From a bacterium (lineage in GTDB: Bacteria; Patescibacteriota; Minisyncoccia; Phycocordibacterales; UBA5272), in assembly GCA_043778525.1 (NCBI GenBank), contig JAYWGA010000020.1, positions 7,317 through 31,316 on the forward strand: a stretch of 24,000 nt of DNA, given 5' to 3'. A program made the translations under genes and the position numbers. A model generated the notes under the pieces. It was not told the DNA's origin. It made no database searches and saw only the letters and a program-made list of their open reading frames with translations. Shown here one piece after another: positions 2,478 to 24,000 of this stretch; position 1 is the stretch's first letter, and the number at the start of each line of letters is the position of its first letter.

Positions 2478-2564
2478 GTTTTGCTTTTTTATTTATCTAA
2501 TCTAATTTTATATAAATAGTCTAGCAGATTTTGTTTTGTTGGTAAATACTGTTAGCTTGTTATG

Positions 2565-2573
2565 TGGTATAAT
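2565..2573 (+). promoter_or_regulatory. Extended -10 promoter (TGGTATAAT) for the RhuM/ATPase operon
   Basis: A perfect TGnTATAAT lies downstream of the track's ATG 2562, which argues that ATG 2586 is the real start and the 5' UTR is about 5 nt. Confidence 0.5.
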
Positions 2574-2585
2574 TATATAAAGTAT

Positions 2586-3608
2586 ATGCAATCAAATTCA
2601 GAGATTATAATTTATAATGACAAAAATGGTGATGTAAAACTTGATGTCCGTTTTGATGGCGAGAGTGCATGGCTATCTCAAAAAATGATAGCAGAGCTCT
2701 TTGGGGTTGACGTTCGCACAGTAAGTGAGCATATACAAAATATTTTTGAAACTAAGGAATTACAGGAAATTTCAACTATCCGGAAAATCCGGATAGTTCA
2801 AAATGAGGGTACAAGAGAGGTTTCTCGTGAGGTTTCGTTTTATAATTTAGACGTTATTATTGCTACGGGTTATAGAGTAAATTCTGTTCTAGCCACACAG
2901 TTTCGTATTTGGGCGACCACAAGGCTGAGCGAATACATCAAAAAAGGCTTTACCATGGATGATGATAGATTAAAGGGTATAGGTGGTGGCAATTATTGGA
3001 AAGAGCTTTTAGATCGCATACGCGATATTCGTAGTAGTGAAAAAGTACTTTATCGCCAAGTGCTAGATCTGTATGCGACAAGCATAGACTATGATGCAAA
3101 AAGTGACGAGTCAGTACTTTTTTTTAAAACAGTACAAAATAAATTGCATTATGCTGCAAATAAACATACAGCAGCCGAGACTGTGCACTCTCGAGCTGAT
3201 GCACAAAAAGATTTTATGGGACTCACTACTTTTAAGGGCACACAGCCTGTATTGTCTGAAGTCCGCATAGCTAAAAATTATTTGAATGAAGATGAAATTT
3301 TTATATTAAATAGAATGGTCTCCGCCTTTTTTGACCTCGCCGAAATAAAAGCCAAACAAGAAACGAAAATGCACATGAAAGACTGGGTAGTGGAGCTAGA
3401 TAAATTTGCTGCGAATTATGGTAAGGGGATATTAAAAGACTCTGGAACAGTAAGTCATGAGGAGGCTTTGGTAAAAGCAGAGAGCGAATATAGAAAGTAT
3501 CAAGTAAAAACACTCTCGCCAGTGGAAGAGGCCTATTTAGAAAGTATTAAGAGCATAGAGAGGAAGGTAGAGGTGAAAATTAACAAAGAAAATAAATGTT
3601 ATGATTAA
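2586..3608 (+). CDS. rhuM: RhuM-family protein (virulence protein RhuM family, PF13310-like)
   Basis: The N-terminus matches the characteristic RhuM signature: SEIIIYNDKNGDVKLDVRFDGESAWLSQKMIAELFGVDVRTVSEHIQNIF...YNLDVIIATGYRVNSVLATQFRIWATTRLSEYIKKGFTMDDDRLK. The start was moved from 2562 to 2586 because of promoter position. Confidence 0.85.
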   Translation: MQSNSEIIIYNDKNGDVKLDVRFDGESAWLSQKMIAELFGVDVRTVSEHIQNIFETKELQEISTIRKIRIVQNEGTREVSREVSFYNLDVIIATGYRVNSVLATQFRIWATTRLSEYIKKGFTMDDDRLKGIGGGNYWKELLDRIRDIRSSEKVLYRQVLDLYATSIDYDAKSDESVLFFKTVQNKLHYAANKHTAAETVHSRADAQKDFMGLTTFKGTQPVLSEVRIAKNYLNEDEIFILNRMVSAFFDLAEIKAKQETKMHMKDWVVELDKFAANYGKGILKDSGTVSHEEALVKAESEYRKYQVKTLSPVEEAYLESIKSIERKVEVKINKENKCYD

Positions 3609-5754
3609 AAAGATTATAAAAATTAAAAATATTGGTAAATATGATATACCGTCAGTTAATGAGGAAGACTTTTTTGGTATAAACACTCTAATTTTTGGCG
3701 CTAACAAAATAGGTAAAACTACGCTAGTAGCAATTCTCAGATCCTTAAGAGAAAATGATGTATCTATAGTTTCAAGTAGAAAAACATTTGGAACTTCAGC
3801 AGAGGAAAAGCAAGAATGCGAAATTGTTTGTGATGATGGTACAAGATTCATATATAATTCCTCGTGGTCATATAAAAATATAGAAATTTTTGACAATGAG
3901 TTTATAAATAGAAATATTTTTATTGGAGATAAGATAGAGCAAGGGCATAAAGCCCAGCTGCATAAAATACTGATAGATGAAACAAATTTAGGATTACAGA
4001 AAAATATAAATTTAGAAGAAATTCAATATGCACAATTAATTTTTGATAAAGAGCAAATTAGAAACTCATTGGGAAAAAATTTTAATGAATTTATTAAATT
4101 TAAAGATTCAGATGAGATTTTAGACGTTGATATAAAGATCAAAAACAATCTCAATAAACGTAATCAGTACAATAATCATAAAAAGATTAATCAGCTTAAA
4201 GTTTCGACAAAGCTATCTTTTAATTTTTTAGATTTTGAAATAAAAATTGAAGAAGATATTGACAACAATTTAGAAAAAATAATTAAAAAACATATTGAGA
4301 ATTGCTGGAACATTGAAGATAAAGATTTTAGTTTTCTAGCAATGGGTGTAAATAGAATATCTAATAATAAAAATTTATGTCCTTTTTGTGGCCAGGGGTT
4401 AGAAAATGTTTCTGAATTAATGTCTAATATGAAAATATTTTTTGGTGAAGCTTATAAGATGACACAAATGTCAATTGAATCATCTATAAAATCTTTTAAG
4501 TCGATTGATATAGAGAAAGAGATTGCGCAATTTAAAGCGGAAGGATTGGAATTTTTAAATTTTTCTAATGCAAAGGACTTAGCTGGTTCCTTTGATGTTA
4601 TTATTAAAAAACTTGATCAAAAGCAAAAAGATTTATCCCTTGATATAAAAATTAAAGAAGTGCCTGAGTATAATAACTTTAAGTCAGCAATACAAGCAAT
4701 CTATGTTGAATTAAATTCTCAAAAAATTGAATCTATGGAAATAGGCATATTAGAGAATGAAGAACTTTTACTAAAATTAAACAAAGAACGCTTTACTGTT
4801 GATGTAAATAATAGATTTAGAGAATATGCAAATATTGAAAAAAAATTGCTGATAAAAAAAGTACTCATAGACAAATTAAACGAAGAACTCAAAGTAGGTC
4901 TTAATGGTTTGTTCAAAGACTATTTATACGAGATTAATCTGATACTGAGTAGCTCTTATGCAAATTTTAAACTTACAGAACTTAAGTCTTTGTCAAACAG
5001 GACATTGAAAGAGTCATTTTTTTGCGACTATGCTTTTATTTTTGACGATAGCCACGTCATAAACATCTTAGATGAAGAATGTAAACCTCAGTTTAAAAGT
5101 ACATTAAGTGATTCCGATAAAAGAATCTTTGCTTTTGCTTTTTTTATTGCAAAGCTTAAAAAAGACAATTTATTAACCAGTAGGATAGTCATCTTAGATG
5201 ATCCATTTACAAGCTTAGACGAGGAAAGGAAAGACACTATGATAAATATTTTAAATAAACTAGCTTGTAAACAGTTGATTGTTTTGTCGCACAGTCGCAC
5301 TTTTATTAAGAGGTATCTTTCAATCTTTAAATCGAATGAATCAGACAGCTCGAAAGAAGTAAAGTCTTTAAGACTTATAAACTGCCTTTCAAAAAATAAA
5401 ACAAAAATTACTAATCTGGATATTGAAATAGACAATGATTTTCTTGAAGGTATTGAAAAATATTTAAATACATTAAATAGAGCAAAAATTGAATCTATAG
5501 AATCAGACTATGATAATATAAGAAAAATTATTGAATATATAGTAAAGGCAAAATATGGATCCCTACTGAGTGTTGAAGAGAGGAGAATGCCAATGAGATA
5601 CTTTAATAATCCAAATTGTAAATCTCAAATGAAAGATGAGATAAAAGAAAAGGATTATCAGGAAAATCACCACGACTTAAACAACCAGCCTTCACCAGAA
5701 GAGCTAATCAGTAAAAAAGATTATTTCATAGATAATGTACTGCCATTTATTTGA
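3601..5754 (+). CDS. AAA_13-type ABC/SMC-like ATPase with coiled-coil zinc-hook insertion and PrrC/RloC-like C-terminal domain (candidate anticodon nuclease)
   Basis: Walker A GANKIGKTT (aa 33-41). A long K/E/N-rich predicted coiled coil spans about aa 115-470 and contains CPFCGQ (aa 260-265). ABC signature-like LSDSDKR (aa 502-508), Walker B IVILDDPFTSLD (aa 529-540), H-loop VLSHS (aa 561-565). The C-terminus carries NIRKIIEY (R641-x3-E645) and ENHHD (H690/H691). The start ATG overlaps the rhuM stop (ATGATTAA). Confidence 0.8.
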   Translation: MIKKIIKIKNIGKYDIPSVNEEDFFGINTLIFGANKIGKTTLVAILRSLRENDVSIVSSRKTFGTSAEEKQECEIVCDDGTRFIYNSSWSYKNIEIFDNEFINRNIFIGDKIEQGHKAQLHKILIDETNLGLQKNINLEEIQYAQLIFDKEQIRNSLGKNFNEFIKFKDSDEILDVDIKIKNNLNKRNQYNNHKKINQLKVSTKLSFNFLDFEIKIEEDIDNNLEKIIKKHIENCWNIEDKDFSFLAMGVNRISNNKNLCPFCGQGLENVSELMSNMKIFFGEAYKMTQMSIESSIKSFKSIDIEKEIAQFKAEGLEFLNFSNAKDLAGSFDVIIKKLDQKQKDLSLDIKIKEVPEYNNFKSAIQAIYVELNSQKIESMEIGILENEELLLKLNKERFTVDVNNRFREYANIEKKLLIKKVLIDKLNEELKVGLNGLFKDYLYEINLILSSSYANFKLTELKSLSNRTLKESFFCDYAFIFDDSHVINILDEECKPQFKSTLSDSDKRIFAFAFFIAKLKKDNLLTSRIVILDDPFTSLDEERKDTMINILNKLACKQLIVLSHSRTFIKRYLSIFKSNESDSSKEVKSLRLINCLSKNKTKITNLDIEIDNDFLEGIEKYLNTLNRAKIESIESDYDNIRKIIEYIVKAKYGSLLSVEERRMPMRYFNNPNCKSQMKDEIKEKDYQENHHDLNNQPSPEELISKKDYFIDNVLPFI

Positions 5755-5838
5755 TATTATAAATAGAAATCAGAAGCAGTGTCACGCACTTATCTCAAAG
5801 CGGGAGATCAACAAAACTACTTTAAATTATTTACTTTG

Positions 5839-5920
5839 TGCCCAGGAAAGGACTTGAACCTTCACATCTTGCGATACTAGTTCCTAAGACTAGTGCGTCT
5901 ACCAATTTCGCCACCTGGGC
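5839..5920 (-). tRNA. tRNA-Leu (anticodon UAG), class II with long variable arm
   Basis: The reverse complement reads GCCCAGG-TG-GCG-AAATTGGTAGA-CGC-A-CTAGT-CTTAGGA-ACTAG-TATCGCAAGATGT-GAAGG-TTCAAGT-CCTTT-CCTGGGC-A. This is a perfect cloverleaf with anticodon TAG and no encoded CCA. Confidence 0.9.
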
Positions 5921-14594: not shown

Positions 14595-14978
14595 ATGAAA
14601 GATTTTAATGCATGGAGCGAGGTCAAAAAATCACAAGACGATAAAATTAGAAATGTATTTTGCAAAGAGCGTGATATTTGGTGGTCTACACTTGGACTAA
14701 ATATTGGCGATGAGGAAGATGGTAAGGGTGAGTTATTTGAAAGACCGATCATTGTAATTAAAAAATTTAATAATAATATATTTTGGGGATGTGCTTTGTC
14801 TACTAAAATAAAAGATAATAATAAGTATTATGTAAAAGTTAAAACTAAAGAAGGTGTGCAGTCTGTGATAATTTCTCAGCTGCGCTTATACGATACAAAA
14901 AGACTTGGAGAAAAAATAGATGTAGCAAGTAAAGAAGATTTTGAAAAAATAAAAACAGCAATTAAAAATTTGCTGTAA
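14595..14978 (+). CDS. PemK/MazF-family toxin-like protein (orphan; no adjacent antitoxin ORF seen)
   Basis: RDIWWSTLGLNIGDEEDGKGELFERPIIVIKKF matches the MazF/PemK core 'GeIwwv.lG.n.G.Eq.G..RPvlVi'. Later SQLRLYDTKRLGEKI matches 'sQirtid..Rl..kiG'. 127 aa. Confidence 0.7.
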   Translation: MKDFNAWSEVKKSQDDKIRNVFCKERDIWWSTLGLNIGDEEDGKGELFERPIIVIKKFNNNIFWGCALSTKIKDNNKYYVKVKTKEGVQSVIISQLRLYDTKRLGEKIDVASKEDFEKIKTAIKNLL

Positions 14979-14992
14979 TTATTGTTATTACC

Positions 14993-15010
14993 CGAGAGAT
15001 TTCTCTCTCG
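14993..15010. other. Perfect 7-bp stem / 4-nt loop hairpin (CGAGAGA-TTTC-TCTCTCG) downstream of the MazF-like gene
   Basis: Seen directly in the sequence. There is no U-tract on either strand, so a role as an intrinsic terminator is uncertain. Confidence 0.3.
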
Positions 15011-15071
15011 AAAGCCCGGAGGCATTTGTATCTATAATATTATACGAAAACAATAAATAAGTCAAGGTAAT

Positions 15072-15099
15072 GCATTAAAAAATGAGCTGGCTAAAATTA
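15072..15099 (+). repeat. Right copy of the 28-bp direct repeat; overlaps the stop codon of the minus-strand deacetylase gene
   Basis: Identical to 14529-14556. Read in the + frame it continues as ALKNELAKIILK-stop (TAG at 15108-15110), which looks like the ancestral 3' end of the ygjP-like gene. Confidence 0.95.
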
Positions 15100-15933
15100 T
15101 TTTAAAGTAGATTTTTTAGCTGGAAAAAGCTCGTAAAATAATCCCATATTACTATTTATGTTGTACCTATTTAATTTAAAGATATCTTTTTGCGTATGAT
15201 AGTTACCATAGCTATCCGACACTGCCGCTATGTAGCCAGCCTCTTCTACTATTTTCGTGACGGTAGCATTTGTGAGGCCATAAGGGTATGAAAAAATATT
15301 TACAGGCTTGCCTATTTTGTCTTCTAGTATTTTTTTACTTCCAGCTATTTCTCTTTCTAGTATTTTTGTGTCTGTTATTTTATTTAGTTTTGGATGAGAG
15401 ACGGTATGCGCTCCTATGGTCATATTATTTTTATCCATATCTATTATATCTTTCCAGCTCATGGCTATGGGGTAGTTTTTATTTATGGCTTTAGTATAAA
15501 TAAAAAAGTTTGCTCGCAAATTATATTTTTTAAGTATAGGGTAGGCATTTGTGTACTGATTTCTATAGCCATCATCAAAAGTGATAATGACTGGATTTTC
15601 GGGAAGTGGCGTATTTTTATTTAAATTATTTACTAGATCATCAAAACTTATAATACTATAATCATTTTCTTTTAGATACTTCATCTGGGTTTCAAAAATA
15701 TTTATAGGCGTGATAAATTCTTTTGCAAAAATATTATCTTTTTTATTAAAATCTCGCACTTGATGATAGGTGAGTATCACCACTTTTGTACTAGTACTTT
15801 TTGTAAAGTTTTGCTCAAGAGTTTCTAGCTTTACCTCAGATATTTCAAAAGGTGTCTCACCAGGGTAGGCAAAGGTGGCTTGTGATAAACAGATAACAAT
15901 AAAAAACGAAATTACTTTAATAATTTTTTTCAT
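15097..15933 (-). CDS. Polysaccharide deacetylase family protein (NodB/PgdA-like), secreted
   Basis: Signal peptide, then NodB motifs ITFDDGYRNQYTNAYPILKKYNLRANFFI and IGAHTVSHPKL. Confidence 0.9.
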   Translation of the reverse strand: MKKIIKVISFFIVICLSQATFAYPGETPFEISEVKLETLEQNFTKSTSTKVVILTYHQVRDFNKKDNIFAKEFITPINIFETQMKYLKENDYSIISFDDLVNNLNKNTPLPENPVIITFDDGYRNQYTNAYPILKKYNLRANFFIYTKAINKNYPIAMSWKDIIDMDKNNMTIGAHTVSHPKLNKITDTKILEREIAGSKKILEDKIGKPVNIFSYPYGLTNATVTKIVEEAGYIAAVSDSYGNYHTQKDIFKLNRYNINSNMGLFYELFPAKKSTLK

Positions 15934-15939
15934 TGTTTA

Positions 15940-15948
15940 ATTATATCA
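15940..15948 (-). promoter_or_regulatory. Extended -10 promoter (TGATATAAT on minus strand) for the deacetylase gene, leaderless-type spacing
   Basis: The minus strand reads TGATATAAT-TAAACA-ATG. Confidence 0.45.
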
Positions 15949-15994
15949 CGCAAACGTAGGCCTTTCCATTTCAAATTGCGTTTTCTGCTCCATA

Positions 15995-16753
15995 TTATAA
16001 TTTTTTATATTTACCATTTCCTAAAAATTCTATATAATTTTTATCTCTCAGTAATTGTAATTGCTGCCTAAGTTTATCCTTTATGTGTTTGTTTTTAGTA
16101 AATATTTCCTCAAGTCTTGCTTTGTGCTTGTAAATATCTTGAAGTGTAAAATAGTTTTTACACTTGTCTACGATTTTTAAAACTTCAAAAGCCCATCCAC
16201 GTTTTTCTAAATTATCTATTTTAAAATTTTTAGTCTTATTCCAGTTTTCTTTTATAATCTTTTTATCTACGATTTCTCCATTTTTAATTAAAAAGATTTT
16301 TCCAATATCAGGTATTTCAGAATAAAGTATATTGCAACCAATCCAACCAGCCCTTTTAGCCGTATTTGAAAGTGGTTTTCTTTTTTCTATAATATTTTCA
16401 GTAAAAAAGTATTTGGGTATTGCTATCACATCTCTTACTATAAAATTTGCATTATAATTTAGAAAAATGAGATTGGGGTTATTGTTAGAATTAACTCTAT
16501 TTATCATTGTACTGTATGCACCGTCCACAATTTTTTTTGATACCATTCCTTTCTTTGATTTGAGTTCAAATTCTTCTTTACAATTTGAACAGTAAAAATC
16601 TGCGACAGGTGAATTGTTTTCAAATTGAGTTAAATTATTTAGACAGCTAACACAGTATCCGTTTTCTAGATACCAAGGCTCAGTCATCACTCTAGCTTTT
16701 TGTGAAGAGCTTTTGTAATCTGTACTTGTATATTTTTCTAAAGATAATGTCAT
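15995..16753 (-). CDS. dpnC: DpnI-type methylation-dependent type IIM restriction endonuclease (G-m6A-TC specific family)
   Basis: Collinear similarity to my recollection of S. pneumoniae DpnI over the whole length. Shared segments: YKSSSQKARVMTE, YC.SC.N.L..FENN.PVADFYC..C.EEFELKSKKG, DGAY.TM..RV...NNPN, RKPL..TA.RAGWIGCNI, and the C-terminal wHTH end NKHIKDKLRQQLQLLRDKNYIEFLGNGKYKKL. Confidence 0.9.
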   Translation of the reverse strand: MTLSLEKYTSTDYKSSSQKARVMTEPWYLENGYCVSCLNNLTQFENNSPVADFYCSNCKEEFELKSKKGMVSKKIVDGAYSTMINRVNSNNNPNLIFLNYNANFIVRDVIAIPKYFFTENIIEKRKPLSNTAKRAGWIGCNILYSEIPDIGKIFLIKNGEIVDKKIIKENWNKTKNFKIDNLEKRGWAFEVLKIVDKCKNYFTLQDIYKHKARLEEIFTKNKHIKDKLRQQLQLLRDKNYIEFLGNGKYKKL

Positions 16754-16794
16754 TTAAAATTTGTTAGCTTATATTTTTCTCCTATAAATAAATT

Positions 16795-17628
16795 TTATTC
16801 ATAGTCATTGATATTAATTGTATTTAGTTTTTGAAGGCCATATACAGGATCTTCTAAAAATTTTTTGATAAAATACTTACCTTTATTCGTCACTGATATT
16901 TTGTCTTCTTTTTGATCTATTTCTATAATCCCATTACTATGGCAATAGGCTAATATGTCTTTTGGAATTTCGAATTGTACTTCGCCACTAAAATTATTTT
17001 TTTCTTTTACTTTAGCATTTTTTTCATAGTAGGATTCTATAATTTTATCAAACTTATATGAAAAATTAAGCACTTTAAACTTTTGATAATCACGTATCCA
17101 TTGTATCGTGGGATCTGTTTCTTTTATAATCTTCTCTAATTGAGACCTATTTATTTCTGCTGTTTTTTTCTTAACCTCTTCACTTAAGATGGCGTTTTCA
17201 GATTTTATAACCTCAACCTCTTTTTTATTCCGTGCTATCTCAGCGTCTTTATGTTTCGCATATAAAAAATCGTATAAAGATTTTTCATCGAAGCTATTAA
17301 ATTTCTTAAATACTATTGAATAGATGATAGCGCTTATAAAAACTGGAATTAAATATATTGATACATAAATATTTATTTTTTCTAAAAAAAGATAAGTATT
17401 ATTTTTTATAAAATCTGGAAGAGCTGTATACTTACTCCAATTAGAATAAACTAGCTTGTCTGCTATGTCTGCTCTTCCAAAAAATATGTATAGAATAATA
17501 CCTTTATTCCAGAGTATAAAAGATAAAATATAAACTCTAAAAACAGAAGACGTAGGAGGGCTATTTAAAAAATCATACATTAAATCTGCCCAGCTTTTAT
17601 TCTTATCCACAATTTGAGATTCACTCAT
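16795..17628 (-). CDS. Hypothetical membrane protein: 2 predicted TM helices + coiled coil + C-terminal winged-helix-like domain
   Basis: 277 aa. Hydrophobic segments VFRVYILSFILWNKGIILYIFF and IYVSIYLIPVFISAIIYSIVF, then a charged heptad-like stretch (KDAEIARNKKEVEVIKSENAILSEEVKKKTAEINRSQLEKIIKE). The C-terminus ILAYCHSNGIIEIDQKEDKISVTNKGKYFIKKFL resembles a wHTH. It lies 41 nt upstream of dpnC on the same strand. No family recognised. Confidence 0.6.
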   Translation of the reverse strand: MSESQIVDKNKSWADLMYDFLNSPPTSSVFRVYILSFILWNKGIILYIFFGRADIADKLVYSNWSKYTALPDFIKNNTYLFLEKINIYVSIYLIPVFISAIIYSIVFKKFNSFDEKSLYDFLYAKHKDAEIARNKKEVEVIKSENAILSEEVKKKTAEINRSQLEKIIKETDPTIQWIRDYQKFKVLNFSYKFDKIIESYYEKNAKVKEKNNFSGEVQFEIPKDILAYCHSNGIIEIDQKEDKISVTNKGKYFIKKFLEDPVYGLQKLNTININDYE

Positions 17629-17835
17629 ATTTTTATTTAAATTTTTTGCTACGATGTCTGGTCTAGTACGAGTGACGTACGTGTGTGTAAGGGTTTTCGA
17701 GCGGATTATATCTATTAGCCTGACCCCTCTAGGTCGTTCTTTTACAAGTGGAAAAATTGTATTTGCTGTGATTTTGCTGTGAAAATCGATGTTATTTTAT
17801 AAAATAAAAACCCATAAGTATTGTATACTTATGGT

Positions 17836-18207
17836 ATGTCTAATATTAAAACTCTTAAACCTTTTCTACCAGGTCATGATCCCAGAAGAAACATCAAAGG
17901 AAGGATATCAAAACCTGTGAGTGAGACAGGTATCTTTAAAAGGCTTCTTCTCGAACATATGCAAAAGAAAGTAATAGTCGGCGGTGAGGAGAGAAGAATC
18001 ATGGATATTATAGTAGAGAGAATTGTAAATGATGCCGCAAAAGGTAAAGCTAGCGCAATCAAACTTATACTAGATAGAACTGAGGGGAAGAGCCCAACCC
18101 AGAAAGCACTGTTTGCAAAAATGGATGGGGAAGAAAGAGGTGTTGGTGGATATGAAATACCAGAGGAGGATATGGCACGTTTGCGCAAGATTTTTGGAGA
18201 TACGTAA
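17836..18207 (+). CDS. Phage-type small protein, DUF5681-like (small-terminase-associated family look-alike)
   Basis: LKPFLPGHDPRRNIKGR resembles the 'F.pGqSGNP.GRPkG' N-terminal motif. IVNDAAKGKASAIKLILDRTEGKS resembles 'A..Gd..A.kl.ldR.eGKp'. G+C is visibly higher than in flanking genes. The start is set at ATG 17836, 6 nt after the TATACT -10 at 17824-17829. The track used TTG 17821. Confidence 0.5.
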   Translation: MSNIKTLKPFLPGHDPRRNIKGRISKPVSETGIFKRLLLEHMQKKVIVGGEERRIMDIIVERIVNDAAKGKASAIKLILDRTEGKSPTQKALFAKMDGEERGVGGYEIPEEDMARLRKIFGDT

Positions 18208-18297
18208 GAATGTATGAAGTCTTAGAAGATCGACCTTCTTCCCAAGACTTACACACTTTAACTTACTTAAAAATATTTGTGTAGTCCGAGTTATCCA

Positions 18298-18609
18298 CTA
18301 TTTCATTCCGAGATCATTCATGTCTTTATAGAGCTCCTCCCTCTCTTTTTCACTCAAACGCTCTATTTCTAATTTGTTAATTCTTTCTAAACCTTCGTCT
18401 TTTGATAGGCCTATTTTTTCTGAAAGAACAAAAAATCTAAGATCATTTAAGATTTGAAAGACATGGATAAATTTCTTATGTCTTTCAATTGTGTGATTAG
18501 TGCCAAGCCACAGAAGCATAAGAATAAAAACTGCTATATTAGTTTTATCTAAACCAAATATTAAAAATGCGAAAAATATTATAAGAAGCCAATTGTATAT
18601 TGTTTTCAT
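18298..18609 (-). CDS. Small hypothetical 2-TM membrane protein with charged C-terminal helix
   Basis: 103 aa. Hydrophobic segments WLLIIFFAFLIFGL and IAVFILMLLWLG, then an E/K-rich tail. It is preceded by a long structured leader. No homology recognised. Confidence 0.55.
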   Translation of the reverse strand: MKTIYNWLLIIFFAFLIFGLDKTNIAVFILMLLWLGTNHTIERHKKFIHVFQILNDLRFFVLSEKIGLSKDEGLERINKLEIERLSEKEREELYKDMNDLGMK

Positions 18610-18810
18610 AAACTTTGGACGGTTTTATTATGAAGGATCTTGCTAGGTAGCAAAAAGCTCCTAGCCAGTTCCGGCATATCCCGTGAAATATACCCATACC
18701 CGTTTCCAGGTATGACCGTCCAAAGTAGACTCTGACTAGGAGTTTTTTACTTTGGACGGATTTGGCGACCATATCCTATTGCTAGGGGTTAGGTCTCTAT
18801 ATTAAGTTGT
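18610..18810 (-). promoter_or_regulatory. ~200-nt structured 5' leader / candidate cis-regulatory RNA with alternative helices
   Basis: Three copies of a 12-mer: 18612-18623 and 18748-18759 are direct copies, and 18715-18727 is inverted. Internal hairpins lie at 18642-18665 (GCTAGG...CCTAGC), 18695-18714 (CATACC...GGTATG) and 18775-18786 (CCTA-GCAA-TAGG on the minus strand). The region is G+C-rich relative to its surroundings. The proximal 12-mer ends 2 nt from the ATG. Confidence 0.5.
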
Positions 18811-18816
18811 AAATTT

Positions 18817-18825
18817 ATTATACCA
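18817..18825 (-). promoter_or_regulatory. Extended -10 promoter (TGGTATAAT on minus strand) driving the structured leader
   Basis: A perfect TGnTATAAT on the minus strand about 205 nt upstream of ATG 18609. This contrasts with the 6-14 nt spacing seen at other genes in this window. Confidence 0.45.
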
Positions 18826-18882
18826 TTTTACTTGGTATTTTTATACTGTAGCTTACATTCAAACTATTGTGTAGTCATAAAG

Positions 18883-21800
18883 CTAATCACTTAAGAAGTG
18901 GCATAATTGAAGATATCTTTGAAAAAGTTTTTTACACATATCTTTATCATTTATAAGCTCATATGCTTTCATCATATTCACAAAACCTCCGTGTCCAGTA
19001 TTTTTATATAGATGTAGTTCCATCTCTTTTTTCATCCTAAGATCACCTAGAGCAACCGAAACTCCTAAGTAAAAATATGGCGAATTAGAAGTAAACCAAT
19101 CAGTGTGTGGAAAGGTATATCGAGTCAGAGTTTCTGTAAATGGCGCAATATTACCAAGGTACTTAAAGGTTCTGTTCAGGAGTAGCTCCCAAGAATCTCT
19201 ATTTGAAATCACAATTCCATTTTTATAATCTTCTAATTTTTTATAAAATCTTTTGATTTTTGCCTTGTTGGTCAATCCAATCAAAATCTTATGTAAATCT
19301 TTGTTAGATATTTTATTTGTATCATCACTATTATTTTTCTCATCAAACTCAACATTCACTGTTTTATTATATTTATTACAAAGCTCAATGTAAGAAACTT
19401 TTAAATCCTTATAGTCTATATCTCTAAGGAAATAGGTTATGCCTTCTGTTTTCATCTCTTCAACTAAGTTGTAGGCAATTTCAAATGCAGCCTTCTTGTC
19501 CTCTTCGGAATATATTGGTGATTTTGACACCTCTACATAAACTTTAATCTTATGCTCATAACTGTCAGAGTTTGGTTTGTTATCGTGATTATAATCTTGC
19601 CTGTACTCGAGAATACCCTCTTTAATCTCATCAAGATCAGTACCGATTCTCACCTTGCCCAATAAGATGTATGTATTAGCCTGATTGTTATAATTTCTGT
19701 AACCCTTATCCTTGATTAAAGTCTTTCTTAATTCATTTGCAAATGAAATATCAAATTTTGAGGCTAACTCAATAACATTGTAAGGTCCTTTCCATGTCAC
19801 AGCCCCATCTGTAAAACTTGAAACATGGAGAGTGAGTTCAAAAATTTCAGATAAGTACTTCTTTATATTTTCAGTAGTCTCACAGTTATTTCTTATGAGA
19901 ATTTCTAAGGAGTCCACTAGCTGATGACTGACCAAGGAATCTTTTCTCCATCCATGCCTTAGAACACTTTCTTTTAAACCTTTTACAAAGTATTCTCTGG
20001 CTTTTTGTTGGTCAATTTTTGAATAAAATAATGATAGAGAAAAACAATCATTAACTAAGGATTGATAATCATCAAATTTTTTGAGCTGGACTTCAATTTT
20101 ATTTAAATCAGTCTGATTAATTAACTTATCAAACAGTTCTTTGTTTATAGATACTAATTTGTAGTAAAAACTCCAAGGAATTATGCCTGATTCTGGTCCT
20201 AGTAACTTTTCCTTTAGAATAAATAGGTCTTCAACCTTTATAGTGGTTACAAGCGACTTACTAAAGATCTGCGCCCAAAGGAAAGAGATATCTGTTTTTA
20301 GATAGCGATCAAGTCTGTCATCTCTCTCTTTTATATAAGAAAAATAATTTCTTAACACGAGCCCAATTGTAGATTTAGTTTTAATAATATTTATATATGA
20401 GTCAAAAAGTGCTGAGTATAGTTCAAGCTCATCTAAGTATTTAAAATTATCATTCGGGTCATTATTTATTTGGCTAAATTTATTTTCATTTAAAGCATAT
20501 GAAATTATTGAAAACTTATGTGGAATGTTATACATATGCCAATCCACCTTCCTTTCGTTTCTCGTTTTTACCAAAAGTTGTTTTAGTAAAGTAGTCTCTT
20601 CATCATTAAGACTCAATCCAAAGTATGTCTTGTAAAATGAGATGTGGTAGTTTTCTTCCCCGAAGGTTACGTTTTCTAGAATTAAACGTTTCTTGATCAA
20701 ATTTTGTATCTTTCTATTTACTAAAAGTGTATTAATTCCATCGAATGACAAGAGCACTCCTAGTAAGGCGTTAAACTCAAAAGTGTCTAACTTGTTTAAG
20801 TTACTAATTAAAAACTTATCATCAACTGATAAAATTGCATAATAAAAAGAGTTTATTAATTTCTCCTTATTGTTTTCTCTTGAAAAACTTTTATCATTCT
20901 CATTCTCGTAAAATTTATAATTTACGCGAATTTGATCTTCCAAAACCTTTGAGGCACTACGTTTTTTTATAACAATCAATATATAAATAAAGTCTGACCA
21001 ATGTTGCCAAAACGGATCTGTAACATGGGTATTTTCACTTTTGTTTTTGAAAAAATCCTTCTCGTGGAATATATCTTGAATTTTAGATATGTGAGTAATT
21101 ATTTTCTGCGAAAACTCTTTTTTACCGCTCTTCCAAAAAATAACAGCATTCTCTATCATTGGTCCGATAGAGCTCCAAGCTCCAGATAACTTGTCATTTA
21201 TTTTATAGTCATTTTTATCCTTATCCCATGCATCAAAAGTTTTATTTAAATAGTCTAAATCCAAAAAAAACATCTTTTTCATTTTAAAACTATCACTTTC
21301 CAACAATTCTTCCATCACCCCAGGCTCTTGATTTGCAAGTGCGGGAATAAATTCTGAAGAATTATGATAATAAGCATCATCAACTCCGTATCCAGTATGA
21401 TTGCCAAGATATACATCGAGTAAATTTATATCAAGTAATCCCACAATATCATTATTTTTTTCATAACATTTTCTTAAATACTTTAAGAAGTATTGTTCGA
21501 AAAAGTCACGATTAGAGAGAACATCTGTACGACGTAGTATAAATGGATCTTTTTCATATTCTAATTTTAATCTCTGTATAAAGAAAAACTCTTGATACCT
21601 TCTGTGTCGATAGATATAGTCGAGTCTCGTTTCATTATCTAAATAACTATTTTCAAAAAATAGATCAGTGAGATAGTTTAATATCTCATTTGTCGAGTTG
21701 TAATCCGCCCTAGGAAAGATGCTAGCAATAATGTCTTGAAGTTCTGATTTCGGTAATCTAAACTGAAATTTCTGATAGGAGCGAAAGGATATCTCTTGAT

Positions 21801-23148
21801 TCAGAGTAAGTATTTTTTCTGGTTTCTCATCCAAAATATTTAAAGTCTCAATATTTTTCTTATGATCAGGGGAATACAGAAGAATCTGCACATTCTCTTC
21901 AATTAAATCAGCAACTGTACTTTTCTCATTTAGTTCTTCTATGGTATCCCACAGTAATTTTATAAATAAAATATCCACTATCTCAGAGATTAGTAATTTA
22001 TTATTTTTCTTAAGTTTGCTTAGGTATTTATCTTTTATCTTGTTGTTTTTACTCTTAAAGTAAAGATCGATATAAGTATTATCTAAGCTTGAAAAGCAAA
22101 AATGCTCAGCCTTAGGTAAGTAAACTGCAGCTCTTGTTTTATTAGAATTACCAGATCGACAAGATATAATAATTTTTTTGGTTGTACTTAATTGTTCTAG
22201 GTTTCTTATGTAAAAAAGTGTCTGATCTGCCTTTTCTGGACTCAACTCGTCGAGACCATCAAATATATAAATGAAATCAAGTTTCTTGTTTCTAACCGAG
22301 AAATCATTTTGCCTATCCCTTATAAGACCCTCCAGATTTTCATTCACGCAATCTTTAAGATTAATAATCATGGGGATTGCTTTGTTCTGTGCCCACACTG
22401 CCAACATCTCTTTTTTGTTTTTCTTATTTAATCCTGAAAAATCTCTAAAAAGAGCGTGTGAAAAAATACTCTTACCAGAACCTGGATGTCCTAGCAGTAA
22501 AAATACCTTTTGTTTTCTTGAAAGAATGCTTTTAACTGGATCCACCATTATTTTGTTGTTACTAGACAGTGGTAACTTAAGATATCCTTCTGACTGAATA
22601 AATGTTTGTATGCTTAAATTAGAGTCATTTTTAATAAAAGAGTAATTATCAGCTTCTCCAAAGTAGATCTGTCCCAAGTCCAAATTACCTGGTTGATTTA
22701 ATGAAATTGAGAAATTTCCAGGATCAAACCAAGATATTTCAATCTTTAATTCTTTAGCAGAGTCAATTAATACCTGCTCTTCAGATGAAACTGTAGTACT
22801 TTTTTTACTACTTTCACTTCGTAATTTATTCACATAAAAAATTACATTATTAAGTTTTGGGTGCTTAGCCTTAGCTTTTCTTAAACCATCCTCCAAGCTT
22901 TTATAATTAATATTTGATTCAAAAAATTTTGACTGAAAACCGATAACTCTTTTACCAACAGAAACTGGAGGCTTCTCTATACCTGTTTGATTTCGATAAC
23001 CAGAAATTCCATCTGATATTTTATAAGTTCTACAAAACAGAAAATAACAAAGTTGCTCAAAAGAACCCTCTGGGTCGCCATTTTCTAACCTAAACTTGTC
23101 GAAGTTAACATTTACTATATTTTCAGTCTGTTTTTTAGTTGTAGACAT
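18883..23148 (-). CDS. STAND/NACHT-type NTPase (NLR-like/Avs-like) with N-terminal Mrr-like PD-(D/E)xK nuclease module and ~1000-aa helical C-terminal region
   Basis: N-terminus: FEQLCYFLFCRTY...QTGIEKPPVSVGKRVIGFQSKFF resembles Mrr_cat 'FE.l...ll...G...D.GID.....vQcKr'. Walker A LLLGHPGSGKS (aa 217-227; nt 22468-22491 for GHPGSGKS). NACHT-style Walker B IYIFDGLDEL (aa 293-302). Then IIISCRSG, followed by about 1000 aa of largely helical-looking sequence with no motif recognised. The start codon lies 3 nt after the hsdS stop. Confidence 0.85.
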   Translation of the reverse strand: MSTTKKQTENIVNVNFDKFRLENGDPEGSFEQLCYFLFCRTYKISDGISGYRNQTGIEKPPVSVGKRVIGFQSKFFESNINYKSLEDGLRKAKAKHPKLNNVIFYVNKLRSESSKKSTTVSSEEQVLIDSAKELKIEISWFDPGNFSISLNQPGNLDLGQIYFGEADNYSFIKNDSNLSIQTFIQSEGYLKLPLSSNNKIMVDPVKSILSRKQKVFLLLGHPGSGKSIFSHALFRDFSGLNKKNKKEMLAVWAQNKAIPMIINLKDCVNENLEGLIRDRQNDFSVRNKKLDFIYIFDGLDELSPEKADQTLFYIRNLEQLSTTKKIIISCRSGNSNKTRAAVYLPKAEHFCFSSLDNTYIDLYFKSKNNKIKDKYLSKLKKNNKLLISEIVDILFIKLLWDTIEELNEKSTVADLIEENVQILLYSPDHKKNIETLNILDEKPEKILTLNQEISFRSYQKFQFRLPKSELQDIIASIFPRADYNSTNEILNYLTDLFFENSYLDNETRLDYIYRHRRYQEFFFIQRLKLEYEKDPFILRRTDVLSNRDFFEQYFLKYLRKCYEKNNDIVGLLDINLLDVYLGNHTGYGVDDAYYHNSSEFIPALANQEPGVMEELLESDSFKMKKMFFLDLDYLNKTFDAWDKDKNDYKINDKLSGAWSSIGPMIENAVIFWKSGKKEFSQKIITHISKIQDIFHEKDFFKNKSENTHVTDPFWQHWSDFIYILIVIKKRSASKVLEDQIRVNYKFYENENDKSFSRENNKEKLINSFYYAILSVDDKFLISNLNKLDTFEFNALLGVLLSFDGINTLLVNRKIQNLIKKRLILENVTFGEENYHISFYKTYFGLSLNDEETTLLKQLLVKTRNERKVDWHMYNIPHKFSIISYALNENKFSQINNDPNDNFKYLDELELYSALFDSYINIIKTKSTIGLVLRNYFSYIKERDDRLDRYLKTDISFLWAQIFSKSLVTTIKVEDLFILKEKLLGPESGIIPWSFYYKLVSINKELFDKLINQTDLNKIEVQLKKFDDYQSLVNDCFSLSLFYSKIDQQKAREYFVKGLKESVLRHGWRKDSLVSHQLVDSLEILIRNNCETTENIKKYLSEIFELTLHVSSFTDGAVTWKGPYNVIELASKFDISFANELRKTLIKDKGYRNYNNQANTYILLGKVRIGTDLDEIKEGILEYRQDYNHDNKPNSDSYEHKIKVYVEVSKSPIYSEEDKKAAFEIAYNLVEEMKTEGITYFLRDIDYKDLKVSYIELCNKYNKTVNVEFDEKNNSDDTNKISNKDLHKILIGLTNKAKIKRFYKKLEDYKNGIVISNRDSWELLLNRTFKYLGNIAPFTETLTRYTFPHTDWFTSNSPYFYLGVSVALGDLRMKKEMELHLYKNTGHGGFVNMMKAYELINDKDMCKKLFQRYLQLCHFLSD

Positions 23149-23151
23149 AAA

Positions 23152-24000
23152 TTATGCAAAAGATTTTGCCATTACAGCATTAAATAACTCATCGACCATT
23201 TGAGTTGATTGAAGCTGCTTCTCTTTTTGAACTTCAATCCCCTTAACTAATTCCGCAAATTTATTTTGTAATTCAATTGGAGACAAAGAGATAATAAGAT
23301 TTTTTATAATAGTCGAATTCCATCCTTCCATGATTGCACCCTTAGAAACATTTCGAGTCTGTTTTCTAACCTCATTGTCAAAAAGTAACGATGCCCACAA
23401 ATAAACAGGGTTCAATCTTGTCTTGTTTGTGGTAATTACGCACAAGTGCTTAGTACTCATGCATTTTGGTAAATCATCTGGAGCAACCACAACTCTACCA
23501 ACAGTTCCCATTATCGTTACCAGTACATCACTAGGGTGAACTTGAAATTTTATAAATTTCTTGAATTTTTCTTCTGGGAGACATCTTTTATATGTCCATC
23601 TAAATTTATTCTTTACTACATTATCTATACCTAAAACAGGGACACCAACCTCTGTAAATTCATGGTGATGCAACTGGCTACCGAAAGGGCCTGTTCTTAT
23701 TGAGCTTTTATCAATGACTAAATTAACAATCTTATCTTTAGGATATGCTTCTTTGCTAAAAAAGTTTTCAAATAAATCAGTTACAAGATCTTCCATTTTC
23801 TTATTTGCCTCAGCTCTCTTATTTTTCAAATCCTCAGCTTCTTTAATAAGAGAAACGATTCGTTTCTGCTCATTCAGATCTGGATTACCTTTTGTATCTG
23901 TTGGAATAGGTACAGTGATTTTTTGTACATACACTTTTGAAATATGTTTAAGTCCTGCACCTTTAAATCCTGTATCTAATATGTGCTTGTTACTTAGTAA
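23152..24000 (-). CDS. hsdS: Type I restriction-modification specificity subunit HsdS, C-terminal part (5' end beyond the window)
   Basis: Central conserved region I.VPIP...EQKRIVSLIKEAEDLKNKR followed by a target-recognition domain (GPFGS...VPVLGIDNV...) and a C-terminal conserved helix (PIELQNKFAELVKGIEVQKEKQ). The frame stays open upstream of the track's GTG through position 24000 (LLSNKHILDTGFKGAGLKHISK...). Confidence 0.9.
   Translation of the reverse strand, partial: LLSNKHILDTGFKGAGLKHISKVYVQKITVPIPTDTKGNPDLNEQKRIVSLIKEAEDLKNKRAEANKKMEDLVTDLFENFFSKEAYPKDKIVNLVIDKSSIRTGPFGSQLHHHEFTEVGVPVLGIDNVVKNKFRWTYKRCLPEEKFKKFIKFQVHPSDVLVTIMGTVGRVVVAPDDLPKCMSTKHLCVITTNKTRLNPVYLWASLLFDNEVRKQTRNVSKGAIMEGWNSTIIKNLIISLSPIELQNKFAELVKGIEVQKEKQLQSTQMVDELFNAVMAKSFA

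Follow-up and report, generated by a model that had tools for sequence, protein, structure and literature searches.

A stretch of 24,000 nucleotides (nt) from contig JAYWGA010000020.1 (assembly GCA_043778525.1, positions 7,317 to 31,316 of the forward strand; hereafter, the window), which belongs to a bacterium of the Patescibacteriota (Minisyncoccia; Phycocordibacterales; UBA5272), carries on its minus strand a small gene encoding a putative membrane protein of 103 amino acids (aa). We found that the region upstream of this gene contains a full-length member of the LOOT RNA family (Rfam RF03000), and we propose that this RNA forms the leader of the gene and acts in cis as a translational switch, in which one strand of a LOOT helix (R2) would pair either with its partner inside the LOOT fold (R1) or with a second partner next to the start codon (R3). 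We put the probability of this proposal at roughly 60%, on the strength of a comparison of the sequence with its relatives.

The elements involved in the proposed switch were read directly from the minus strand of the window as three 12-mers upstream of the open reading frame (ORF):

18759-18748, minus strand: R1, CCGTCCAAAGTA (CCGUCCAAAGUA in the RNA feature list), the 5' strand of LOOT helix P2
18727-18716 (feature 18715..18727), minus strand: R2, TACTTTGGACGG (UACUUUGGACGG(U)), the 3' strand of P2 and the partner common to R1 and R3
18623-18612, minus strand: R3, ACCGTCCAAAGT (ACCGUCCAAAGU), with which R2 can pair instead of R1; it stops 2 nt short of the AUG at 18609
18298..18609, minus strand: ORF of 103 aa, putatively regulated, with a hydrophobic N-terminal third and a charged C-terminal half

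All three 12-mers had been pointed out in the initial annotation, which had placed R3 correctly but had swapped the coordinates of R1 and R2, apparently by mixing the strands. R2 can form a perfect 12-bp helix with R1 (18716-18727 with 18748-18759) and another, offset by one base, with R3 (18612-18623 with 18715-18726). R3 is a near copy of R1 that includes its A-rich 5' flank. The 11-mer CCGTCCAAAGT occurs in 3 exact copies compared to 0.14 expected, and none of 100 shuffled sequences matched the observed count. A chance origin of the copies in the window is excluded.

The putative start of the leader lies far upstream of the ORF, where two elements precede the LOOT RNA:

18817..18825, minus strand: extended -10 box TGGTATAAT, located about 208 nt before the ATG and assigned as the putative promoter for LOOT transcription
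18800..18810, minus strand: 5' motif ACAACTTAATA, conserved as ACAAYTKAATA in the family, downstream of the -10 box, upstream of helix P1, and outside the Rfam model

The distant -10 box and the G+C-rich leader that follows it, both noted in the initial annotation, were confirmed (G+C content of 40-46% in the leader region vs about 25-30% in the flanks). Its suggestion of a structured leader RNA with a promoter of its own was likewise supported. The 216-nt leader folds with -74.1 kcal/mol vs -45.0 +/- 4.3 kcal/mol for shuffled sequences (z = -6.7), and the position of the -10 box is conserved in relatives. A two-hexamer sigma-70 scan of the window did not flag TGGTATAAT, at which there is no -35 box; the promoter is assigned because of the extended -10 box and its conserved position across LOOT types. 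The ACAAYTKAATA motif was recognized by eye in most of 67 LOOT upstream regions, and no partner sequence was identified for it. It should also be noted that a hairpin (AUACCA-AGUAAAA-UGGUAU, 18817-18839, minus strand) overlaps the TGGTATAAT box with its 3' arm, and that different but complementary arms were seen by eye at the same site in relatives (ACCUCG/CGAGGU, GUAGCAAA/UUUGCUAC, and GAUAGCA/UGCUAU). This hairpin might shield the promoter against transcription coming from upstream, or it might belong to a longer RNA.

A leader of about 200 nt is exceptional within the window, since most of its ORFs (about 12 of 21) have a -10-like (TATAAT-like) hexamer ending 5-16 nt from the ATG. None of these approximately 12 ORFs has a Shine-Dalgarno (SD)-like motif at the expected position, with one weak GAGG found elsewhere, which suggests that the mRNAs of the window are mostly leaderless.

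Using cmscan, positions 18795-18673 of the minus strand were matched to the complete LOOT model (positions 1-121 of 121) with 73.1 bits, a gathering threshold of 46.4, and E = 2.8e-12, and the five closest relatives scored 67-80 bits against RF03000. The RNA had initially been considered to match no known class, which this above-threshold match corrects: R1:R2 corresponds to P2 (at its base), the GNRA-capped stem to inner P1, and the CAUACC hairpin to P3. Besides LOOT, an Rfam scan of 18450-18950 at E<=10 returned sub-threshold chance matches only, with no known ribozyme motif and no antisense RNA family. The fold comprises the following parts:

18673..18795, minus strand: LOOT RNA core, P1 to P4 (RF03000, model positions 1-121; cmscan)
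18767..18795, minus strand: P1, with an outer stem (18795-18792/18770-18767) and an inner stem capped by GCAA (18782-18779); from the Rfam alignment and the covariation of helices 1-2 in family alignment A2
18695..18714, minus strand: P3 hairpin CAUACCUG-GAAA-CGGGUAUG; from the Rfam alignment, 98.7% paired in family alignment A2
18673..18694, minus strand: P4 hairpin GGUAUA...UAUGCC; from the Rfam alignment, 93.5% paired in family alignment A2
18642..18665, minus strand: local 3' hairpin GCUAGGAGC-UUUUU-GCUACCUAGC, present in the minimum free energy (MFE) fold; it uses the 3' strand of the pseudoknot described below, and so competes with it

P1 contains the CCUAA/(C/U)AUGG internal loop of LOOT RNAs (GACCUAAC...GCAA...GAUAUGGUC at 18795-18767), with CCUAA at 18793-18789 and UAUGG at 18773-18769, a loop that we take to resemble the 11-nt GAAA-tetraloop receptor. 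It is followed by P2, in the form of the 12-bp R1:R2 helix, and then by P3 and P4, which is the order of helices in LOOT. In the window and its closest relatives, the loop of P4 is longer, is not of the GNRA type, and contains a UUUCACGGG insertion. Among the hairpins described in the initial annotation, CAUACC/GGUAUG with its GAAA loop, GCUAGGAGC...GCUACCUAGC, and CCUA-GCAA-UAGG are present, but a fourth, P4 (18694-18673), had been missed. R3, the local 3' hairpin, and the tail 3' of P4 are located outside the Rfam model.

Relatives were collected with a degenerate pattern derived from conserved LOOT blocks. A scan of IMG/VR with this pattern gave 7 matches, 4 of which were true LOOTs, while the same pattern gave at least 120 stretches in one-genome-per-species contigs, almost all of them LOOT-like and from metagenome-assembled genomes (MAGs) of Patescibacteria. 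The resulting sample consists of 127 LOOT copies with about 120 distinct leaders and 69 distinct P2 types, and all family counts reported here are among these listed matches. A LOOT nearly identical to the window copy was found in a Paceibacterota MAG (L019; loci of the sample are cited by L numbers). Furthermore, L021, L087, L130, and a few others are LOOTs in MAGs labelled Methanofastidiosum, Methanoregula, Gammaproteobacteria, Verrucomicrobiia, or Chitinophagaceae. These could reflect binning contamination by contigs of the candidate phyla radiation (CPR) or mobile elements, or a real wider host range.

Across the sample, the structured domain covaries extensively: 85% of cells are paired and 35 of 45 pairs are changed on both sides, a level that none of 500 shuffles attained. 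The counts for R1:R2 in MAFFT alignments are low (60-65%), as this variable stem is misaligned there, and P2 was judged from the Rfam model and per-sequence searches instead. The GAAA loop of P3 is fixed by the sampling pattern, though it is also given in upper case in the Rfam consensus.

The initial annotation had proposed two mutually exclusive partners for R2, with R3 abutting the start codon, and had suggested covariation in related loci as a check. Indeed, the three elements covary in those loci. When the R2 of each type was compared to its own downstream region, a Watson-Crick complement of at least 9 nt was found for 18 of 69 types (26%) vs 0.57% with R2 from unrelated loci, and one of at least 10 nt for 14 of the 69 vs 0.09% in the control. 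An unbiased scan of the start region (-22 to +6) against the entire LOOT of the same locus gave matches of at least 9 nt in 16 of 61 cases compared to 1.3% in the control, and among the 16 strongest cases, R2 was the matching LOOT segment in 15. A first permutation test that included G-U pairs had been too noisy and was replaced by these tests, which use Watson-Crick pairs only and controls from which those sharing 6-mers were excluded.

In nearly all cases, R3 ends 0-5 nt before the ATG, and now and then farther away. About 16 variants of the R sequence occur (e.g., CCCGCUAGAG, CCGCUAAAGUG, CCAGUCACGG, CCACACCAAUG, and CCGACCAAGG), and several columns of the R2:R3 helix exhibit two to four pair types in alignment A4 (GC 22/AU 20; CG 18/AU 16/UA 5; CG 16/GC 12). 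Moreover, R3 tracks the complement of R2 and not the sequence of R1 (L009, L033, L079, L082, and L134): in L009 and L033, R2 pairs over a longer stretch with R3 than it does with R1; in L134, a perfect R3 is found alongside an R1 that contains a mismatch; and in L082, R3 has C-G where R1 has U-G. The sole change of R3 in L008, from C to U, keeps a G-U pair. Near-identical LOOTs share R3, but neither the spacer that precedes it nor the ORF that follows is related between them, which makes R3 a conserved island. Judging from these patterns, R3 is under selection across the family.

Repeated 12-mers could also be sites on the DNA, either operators for a protein, an alternative named in the initial annotation itself, or recombination sites, for example for an upstream serine recombinase or as exchange boundaries of the downstream gene. 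It would fit this explanation that a homologue of the serine recombinase of L003 is encoded in the fetched locus for 43 of 127 LOOTs and that cargo upstream and ORFs downstream vary greatly between loci. However, two-thirds of the loci are without a nearby recombinase, and the some 16 R sequences would need matching changes in specificity, yet the recombinases are 58-73% identical across R types. R3 is tied to the ATG (0-5 nt) and not to a homology breakpoint, while R1:R2 is part of an RNA structure that has tetraloops and covarying helices. In addition, R3 keeps to the complement of R2, even through a change that is compatible with G-U pairing, a pattern that makes no sense for duplex DNA. 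We therefore consider DNA sites of either kind highly improbable.

The position of R3 just 5' of the AUG is, furthermore, what would be expected if R2 guided a cleavage at R3, by the RNA itself or by a host RNase, that generates a leaderless mRNA. This would agree with the leaderless appearance of most genes in the window and with the start regions of R3-class ORFs, 0 of 16 of which have an SD-like motif vs 11 of 45 other LOOT ORFs; in addition, tetraloop-receptor architecture is typical of large ribozymes. On the other hand, leaderless translation needs an almost exact 5'-AUG, whereas the distance between R3 and the AUG varies from 0 to 5 nt or more, alignment A4 has no conserved nucleotides at the putative cleavage site, and the Rfam scan matched no known ribozyme motif. 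Processing at R3 thus appears very unlikely, and we return to the proposed translational switch.

Besides the two helices of R2, a third long-range pairing was found, which connects the loop of P2 to the 3' tail:

18732..18751, minus strand: P2 loop of 20 nt, 85% complementary to the tail, in which CUCCUAGUCAG (18742-18732) is the 5' strand of the pseudoknot
18649..18668, minus strand: 3' tail, in which CUGGCUAGGAG (18668-18658), just 3' of P4, is the 3' strand of the pseudoknot
within 18649..18668, minus strand: GCUUUUUGCU, a conserved U-tract in the 3' tail and possible extension of the pseudoknot

The initial annotation had compared the junction enclosed by R2:R3 to a riboswitch aptamer, a description that was incomplete in that this pseudoknot was missed. 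Across the 69 types, its 11 pairs are 96.3% paired vs 36-51% when one strand is slid against the other, and 10 of the 11 pairs change on both sides, with 107 doubly changed cells vs 28 in shuffles. An A/U-rich extension (18751-18744 with 18656-18649) is 83.5% paired compared to 39-60% when slid; its 5' strand consists of the A-run and the 3' end of R1 (18751-18744), and its last four pairs compete with the top of P2. The apical P2 stem of the Rfam model (ACUC/GAGU) was considered for the same nucleotides, but it is paired in only 72% of the alignment, and in its covarying column the pseudoknot accounts for UA 40/CG 26 with none unpaired, compared to UA 28/CG 11 with 27 unpaired for the Rfam stem. 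The pseudoknot, or an alternation of both, is thus favoured over the Rfam stem alone. By these measures, the pseudoknot is the best-supported long-range contact of the leader. The local 3' hairpin, by contrast, was rejected as a conserved "anti-pseudoknot" arm of the family, as the longest complementary run is 6.7 nt vs 5.5 nt in shuffles and reaches p<=0.05 in 16 of 69 types.

The arrangement of LOOT loci indicates that the RNA behaves as a 5' leader of the downstream gene. A hexamer with at most 1 mismatch to TATAAT, often preceded by TG, ends 20-29 nt upstream of the P1 CCTAA in 36 of 67 other LOOT types, compared to a background of 1-7 per 5-nt bin, and in 65 of 69 types an ORF on the same strand starts with an ATG within 140 nt of P3. 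The products of these 65 ORFs fall into 58 unrelated clusters and range from 34 to 725 aa (median 165 aa), and Pfam identified scattered zinc ribbons, DUF4352, pilin-like, subtilase, and HNH domains only. Their sole common property is a predicted membrane helix or anchor, found in 47 of the 65 vs 67 of 273 neighbouring ORFs. An addiction-type gene, as suggested by the initial annotation, is therefore not a general feature of LOOT loci, considering the median length and the number of clusters; for the 103-aa protein of the window, it is possible.

The same loci could be read differently, with LOOT as a separate small RNA (sRNA) whose R2 represses R3 on a short-leader mRNA, in the manner of a tandemly encoded type I antitoxin; the mRNA would start from a weak promoter whose hexamer, CATAAT (18632-18627), lies within the spacer at 17 nt from the ATG. 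Rfam types the family as "Gene; sRNA", the protein of the window is small and hydrophobic, and true terminators follow some LOOTs. In addition, several R3-class spacers contain, by eye, TATAAT-like AU-rich motifs (CATAAT, ATTATTAG, and TGGTATAAA) 5-15 nt upstream of R3. These spacer hexamers are, however, poor matches to a -10 box and lie 17 nt from the ATG, compared to 5-16 nt for other genes, and the window LOOT is not followed by a terminator, the only terminator-like call being P3 itself. R2 of a free sRNA would be locked in a 12-bp stem, so that pairing in trans would have no advantage over pairing in cis. Furthermore, proteins of 34-725 aa that include subtilase and pilin-like members are not toxin-like as a class, and even the 103-aa protein exceeds the usual <60 aa of type I toxins; neither an antisense RNA family nor a convincing second promoter was found in the window. 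An sRNA acting in trans is consequently unlikely in our view, and a leader acting in cis is the preferred interpretation.

Not all leaders end in the same way. A clear intrinsic terminator is present between LOOT and the ORF in 8 of 120 leaders (L068, L087, L092, L103, L112, L119, L127, and L129); the terminator search near the tail had mostly caught local hairpins with the conserved U-tract, and a restriction to the region after the tail left these 8 convincing cases. In this subclass, the terminator's 5' arm (CGCCAGCU) and the pseudoknot's 3' strand (AGCUGGCG) complement each other, corresponding to a terminator/anti-terminator arrangement. Since both the R3 type and the terminator type occur, at least two downstream platforms exist on the same core; in the other leaders among the approximately 120, no platform was recognized. 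As a separate observation, several terminator-type leaders repeat 5-6 nt of their R1 at the ATG (CCCAU for L103 and L015, CCAAC for L112) and have start contexts (AUAUGAC) that are complementary to the conserved GUCAUAU at the junction of R2 and P3.

Taken as a mechanism, the proposal would work as follows. Transcription from the extended -10 promoter would place a LOOT 5' leader of about 200 nt on the transcript of the 103-aa gene. In the R1:R2 state, the conserved LOOT fold would be complete and the start region single-stranded, corresponding to an open conformation; in the R2:R3 state, the 12 nt ending 2 nt before the AUG would be buried and binding of the 30S subunit blocked. The two helices are almost equal in energy (on average -20.4 kcal/mol for R1:R2 vs -18.9 kcal/mol for R2:R3), with the nested MFE structure choosing R2:R3 in 10 of 42 leaders, and in the window the two states differ by 6 kcal/mol (-80.1 kcal/mol for R1:R2 vs -74.1 kcal/mol for R2:R3). 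Because of this near equality, a modest input could tip the balance between R1 and R3. The pseudoknot is a plausible lever for this choice, since its A/U extension overlaps the top of P2. Our tentative guess, made with low confidence, is that the pseudoknot with its extension loosens P2 and hands R2 to R3 (OFF). This guess fits the terminator subclass, in which the 3' strand of the pseudoknot would be the partner for anti-termination, so that formation of the pseudoknot would free the terminator. Family membership, the three-way covariation, the place of R3 at the AUG, the pseudoknot, the arrangement as a leader, and the near equality of the energies are shown here; control of translation by the pairing, and its shift by a signal, are inferred.

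What such a signal might be depends on whether LOOT is a sensor. The core shares several properties with riboswitches, i.e., a covarying structured domain, a position in the 5' untranslated region (UTR) in a constant orientation, and a platform pairing that is exclusive with the aptamer-like fold, while the regulated genes do not share a pathway or ligand (58 clusters among 65 ORFs). As a special case of the proposed switch, P1-P4 and the pseudoknot might form the pocket of a ligand-binding aptamer, with R3 or a terminator as interchangeable platforms. The compact conserved core with its likely tetraloop-receptor contact and pseudoknot, the consistent 5'-UTR position, the presence of at least two expression platforms on one core, and the almost equal energies of the competing helices are consistent with this possibility. 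However, the absence of a pathway common to 58 clusters of mostly uncharacterized envelope proteins is atypical for metabolite riboswitches, a protein, temperature, or co-transcriptional kinetics could serve equally well, and the sign of regulation would be opposite in the two platform classes if the bound state had both P2 and the pseudoknot. We therefore regard a ligand-binding aptamer as a tentative possibility. In a broader form that we likewise consider doubtful, LOOT would act as a genuine sensor, either as a riboswitch of a new class or as a similar signal-responsive fold. It would be widespread in Patescibacteria and on their serine-recombinase elements, and through interchangeable platforms it would turn on or off a large, rapidly changing set of membrane and surface genes, with a global cue as input. 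The diversity of the regulated genes would point to such a global cue, for instance a nucleotide second messenger, an envelope or host-contact signal, or phage infection, and not to a pathway metabolite.

Several points weigh against the proposed switch and set its scope. Rfam types LOOT as an sRNA gene. The R3 platform is present in 42 of about 120 leaders, so that the mechanism would apply to a subclass with approximately one quarter to one third of the LOOT variants. Switching could go in either direction: were P2 and the pseudoknot both part of the signal-bound state, the R3 class would be ON and the terminator class OFF. R2:R3 together with the long pseudoknot helix is itself pseudoknotted, and the energies given above are from nested folds that ignore pseudoknots. 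The downstream genes, in 58 clusters, have no common pathway or function that would point to a ligand. Finally, the sampling pattern fixes CCTAA, AYGG, and the P3 hairpin; the sample is therefore a biased subset of the family, and no claim of conservation is made at these positions.

The putatively regulated protein itself is rare, with 6 clusters among 5.8 billion proteins, and has no Pfam or PADLOC match; its hydrophobic N-terminal third could accommodate two membrane helices. Among the 5 other clusters, loci were fetched for all but P0005, and each of these loci has a LOOT directly upstream (67-80 bits). Wherever the fetched contig reaches far enough, a DUF5681 gene is convergent with the small ORF, resulting in a conserved module of LOOT, small ORF, and DUF5681. 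On comparison of all loci, the small protein is not the part that is conserved across LOOT loci. The DUF5681 ORF of the window (17821-18207, plus strand; 123-128 aa) has a G+C content of 38-46%, above that of its surroundings. Relatives conserve several motifs of the adjacent intergenic region 17629-17820: a direct repeat TCACAGNAAAATCACAG, GTACTAGACCAGACATCGYAGC, and the palindrome CCATAAGTATACAATACTTATGG, which runs into T5 and is terminator-like. When checked for a second structured RNA, the region had no stable fold (z = -0.9), and it may serve the divergent DUF5681 and 277-aa genes as an operator/promoter region.

Upstream of the leader, the window encodes a STAND protein, and the initial annotation had linked the RNA to this gene. 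The link did not survive comparison: in L003, L004, and L005, LOOT is preceded not by a STAND gene but by the divergent gene of a large serine recombinase, together with copper-resistance cargo, and the similarity of relatives to the window starts only about 60 nt upstream of the -10 box. The candidate of an effector module in which the RNA and the small ORF are associated with STAND/Avs was rejected, as the upstream gene is Avs4-like in the window, encodes the recombinase in these three loci, and is unrelated in other loci. Across LOOT loci in general, the upstream neighbour varies freely. Where a recombinase of the L003 type is present, it is usually divergent, either 146-264 nt upstream or separated from LOOT by 2.4-4.4 kb of cargo (KAP NTPase, OLD/UvrD-like proteins, and restriction enzymes), and near-identical LOOTs are found in MAGs of different CPR classes and in viral contigs. 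The recombinase neighbours, the variable cargo, and the near-identical copies across CPR classes lead us to conclude that LOOT travels with integrative elements, where it is located at a cargo hotspot; the block of type I restriction-modification (R-M) and Avs4 genes in the window is one such cargo. The window itself is chromosomal, encoding IF-2 (502 aa), RbfA, peptide deformylase, and YchF. The shortness of this IF-2, the low G+C content, the mostly leaderless look of the genes, and the near-identical LOOT of L019 point to a Patescibacteria (CPR) chromosome as the probable source. It also has two defence-type clusters: one at 14595-23934 with a type I R-M specificity subunit, the Avs4-like STAND protein (1421 aa; N-terminal match 8e-35), a DpnI-like methyl-directed restriction enzyme, MazF/PemK, and a YgjP-like peptidase, and another at 2562-5754 with RhuM and an AAA_13 ATPase, adjoining tRNA-Leu (5838-5920).

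LOOT was described in the 2017 screen by Weinberg et al. (PMC5737381), is shown as a "metagenomic-based RNA" in Rfam 14 (PMC7779021), and was assigned about 43 bp in six helices in a CaCoFold analysis of the family alignment (PMC7657543). Our literature search identified no functional study of LOOT after the 2017 screen. Furthermore, no description of R3, the pseudoknot, the behaviour of LOOT as a leader, or the prevalence of Patescibacteria among the sampled loci was found in the literature searched, which did not cover the supplement of the 2017 screen. Thus, an RNA listed since 2017 as a metagenomic "sRNA" without a function gains a testable role, being a 5' leader with a pseudoknot outside the current model and with the signature of a translational switch in a large subclass. 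The window copy, in turn, should no longer be seen as part of a STAND/Avs defence system. The sampled LOOTs are abundant in Patescibacteria, ultra-small episymbionts about whose gene regulation almost nothing is known and for whose lifestyle surface proteins are central. If the proposal is true, LOOT would offer a handle on the control of envelope proteins in these bacteria and their mobile elements. It would then also be a strong candidate for an orphan riboswitch, whose defined read-out could be used in the search for ligands, and would illustrate how start sites can be controlled where mRNAs seem to be mostly leaderless and SD-less.

Compared to the family as modelled in RF03000, the window RNA is the same in its full-length, above-threshold match, its P1 with CCUAA/AUGG loop and GNRA cap, its long P2, its P3 with GAAA loop, and its P4. 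It is different in that the model ends at P4, whereas the window copy and its relatives add the tail pseudoknot, the 5' motif, the promoter, and, in a subclass, R3. Among other regulatory RNAs, the c-di-GMP-I (GEMM-I) riboswitch docks a GNRA tetraloop in a receptor and precedes heterogeneous genes, many of which encode envelope or surface proteins and some of which are on phages or mobile elements. LOOT is likewise a compact domain, with a probable tetraloop-receptor contact, upstream of very heterogeneous genes, but its helices are arranged differently and no similarity in sequence or model to c-di-GMP-I was found at E<=10. The mRNAs of type I toxins (hok/sok-type as well as tisB, zorO, and dinQ) use exclusive long-range pairings to set the access to the start region of a small hydrophobic protein. 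Similar long-range and mutually exclusive pairings extend over the start region of the small hydrophobic protein in the window, although LOOT is a tetraloop-rich domain that precedes proteins of 34-725 aa in 58 clusters and is not bound to a toxin family. Lastly, in translational riboswitches such as the add adenine riboswitch of Vibrio vulnificus and the thiM thiamine pyrophosphate (TPP) riboswitch of Escherichia coli, a strand of an aptamer stem alternatively pairs with the ribosome-binding region. While LOOT differs from these in that its regulated genes share no pathway and in that it would sequester 12 nt 5' of the AUG instead of an SD sequence, it has in common with them a folded 5'-UTR domain, a core-helix strand with a second partner at the initiation region, similar stabilities of the competing helices, and varied platforms.

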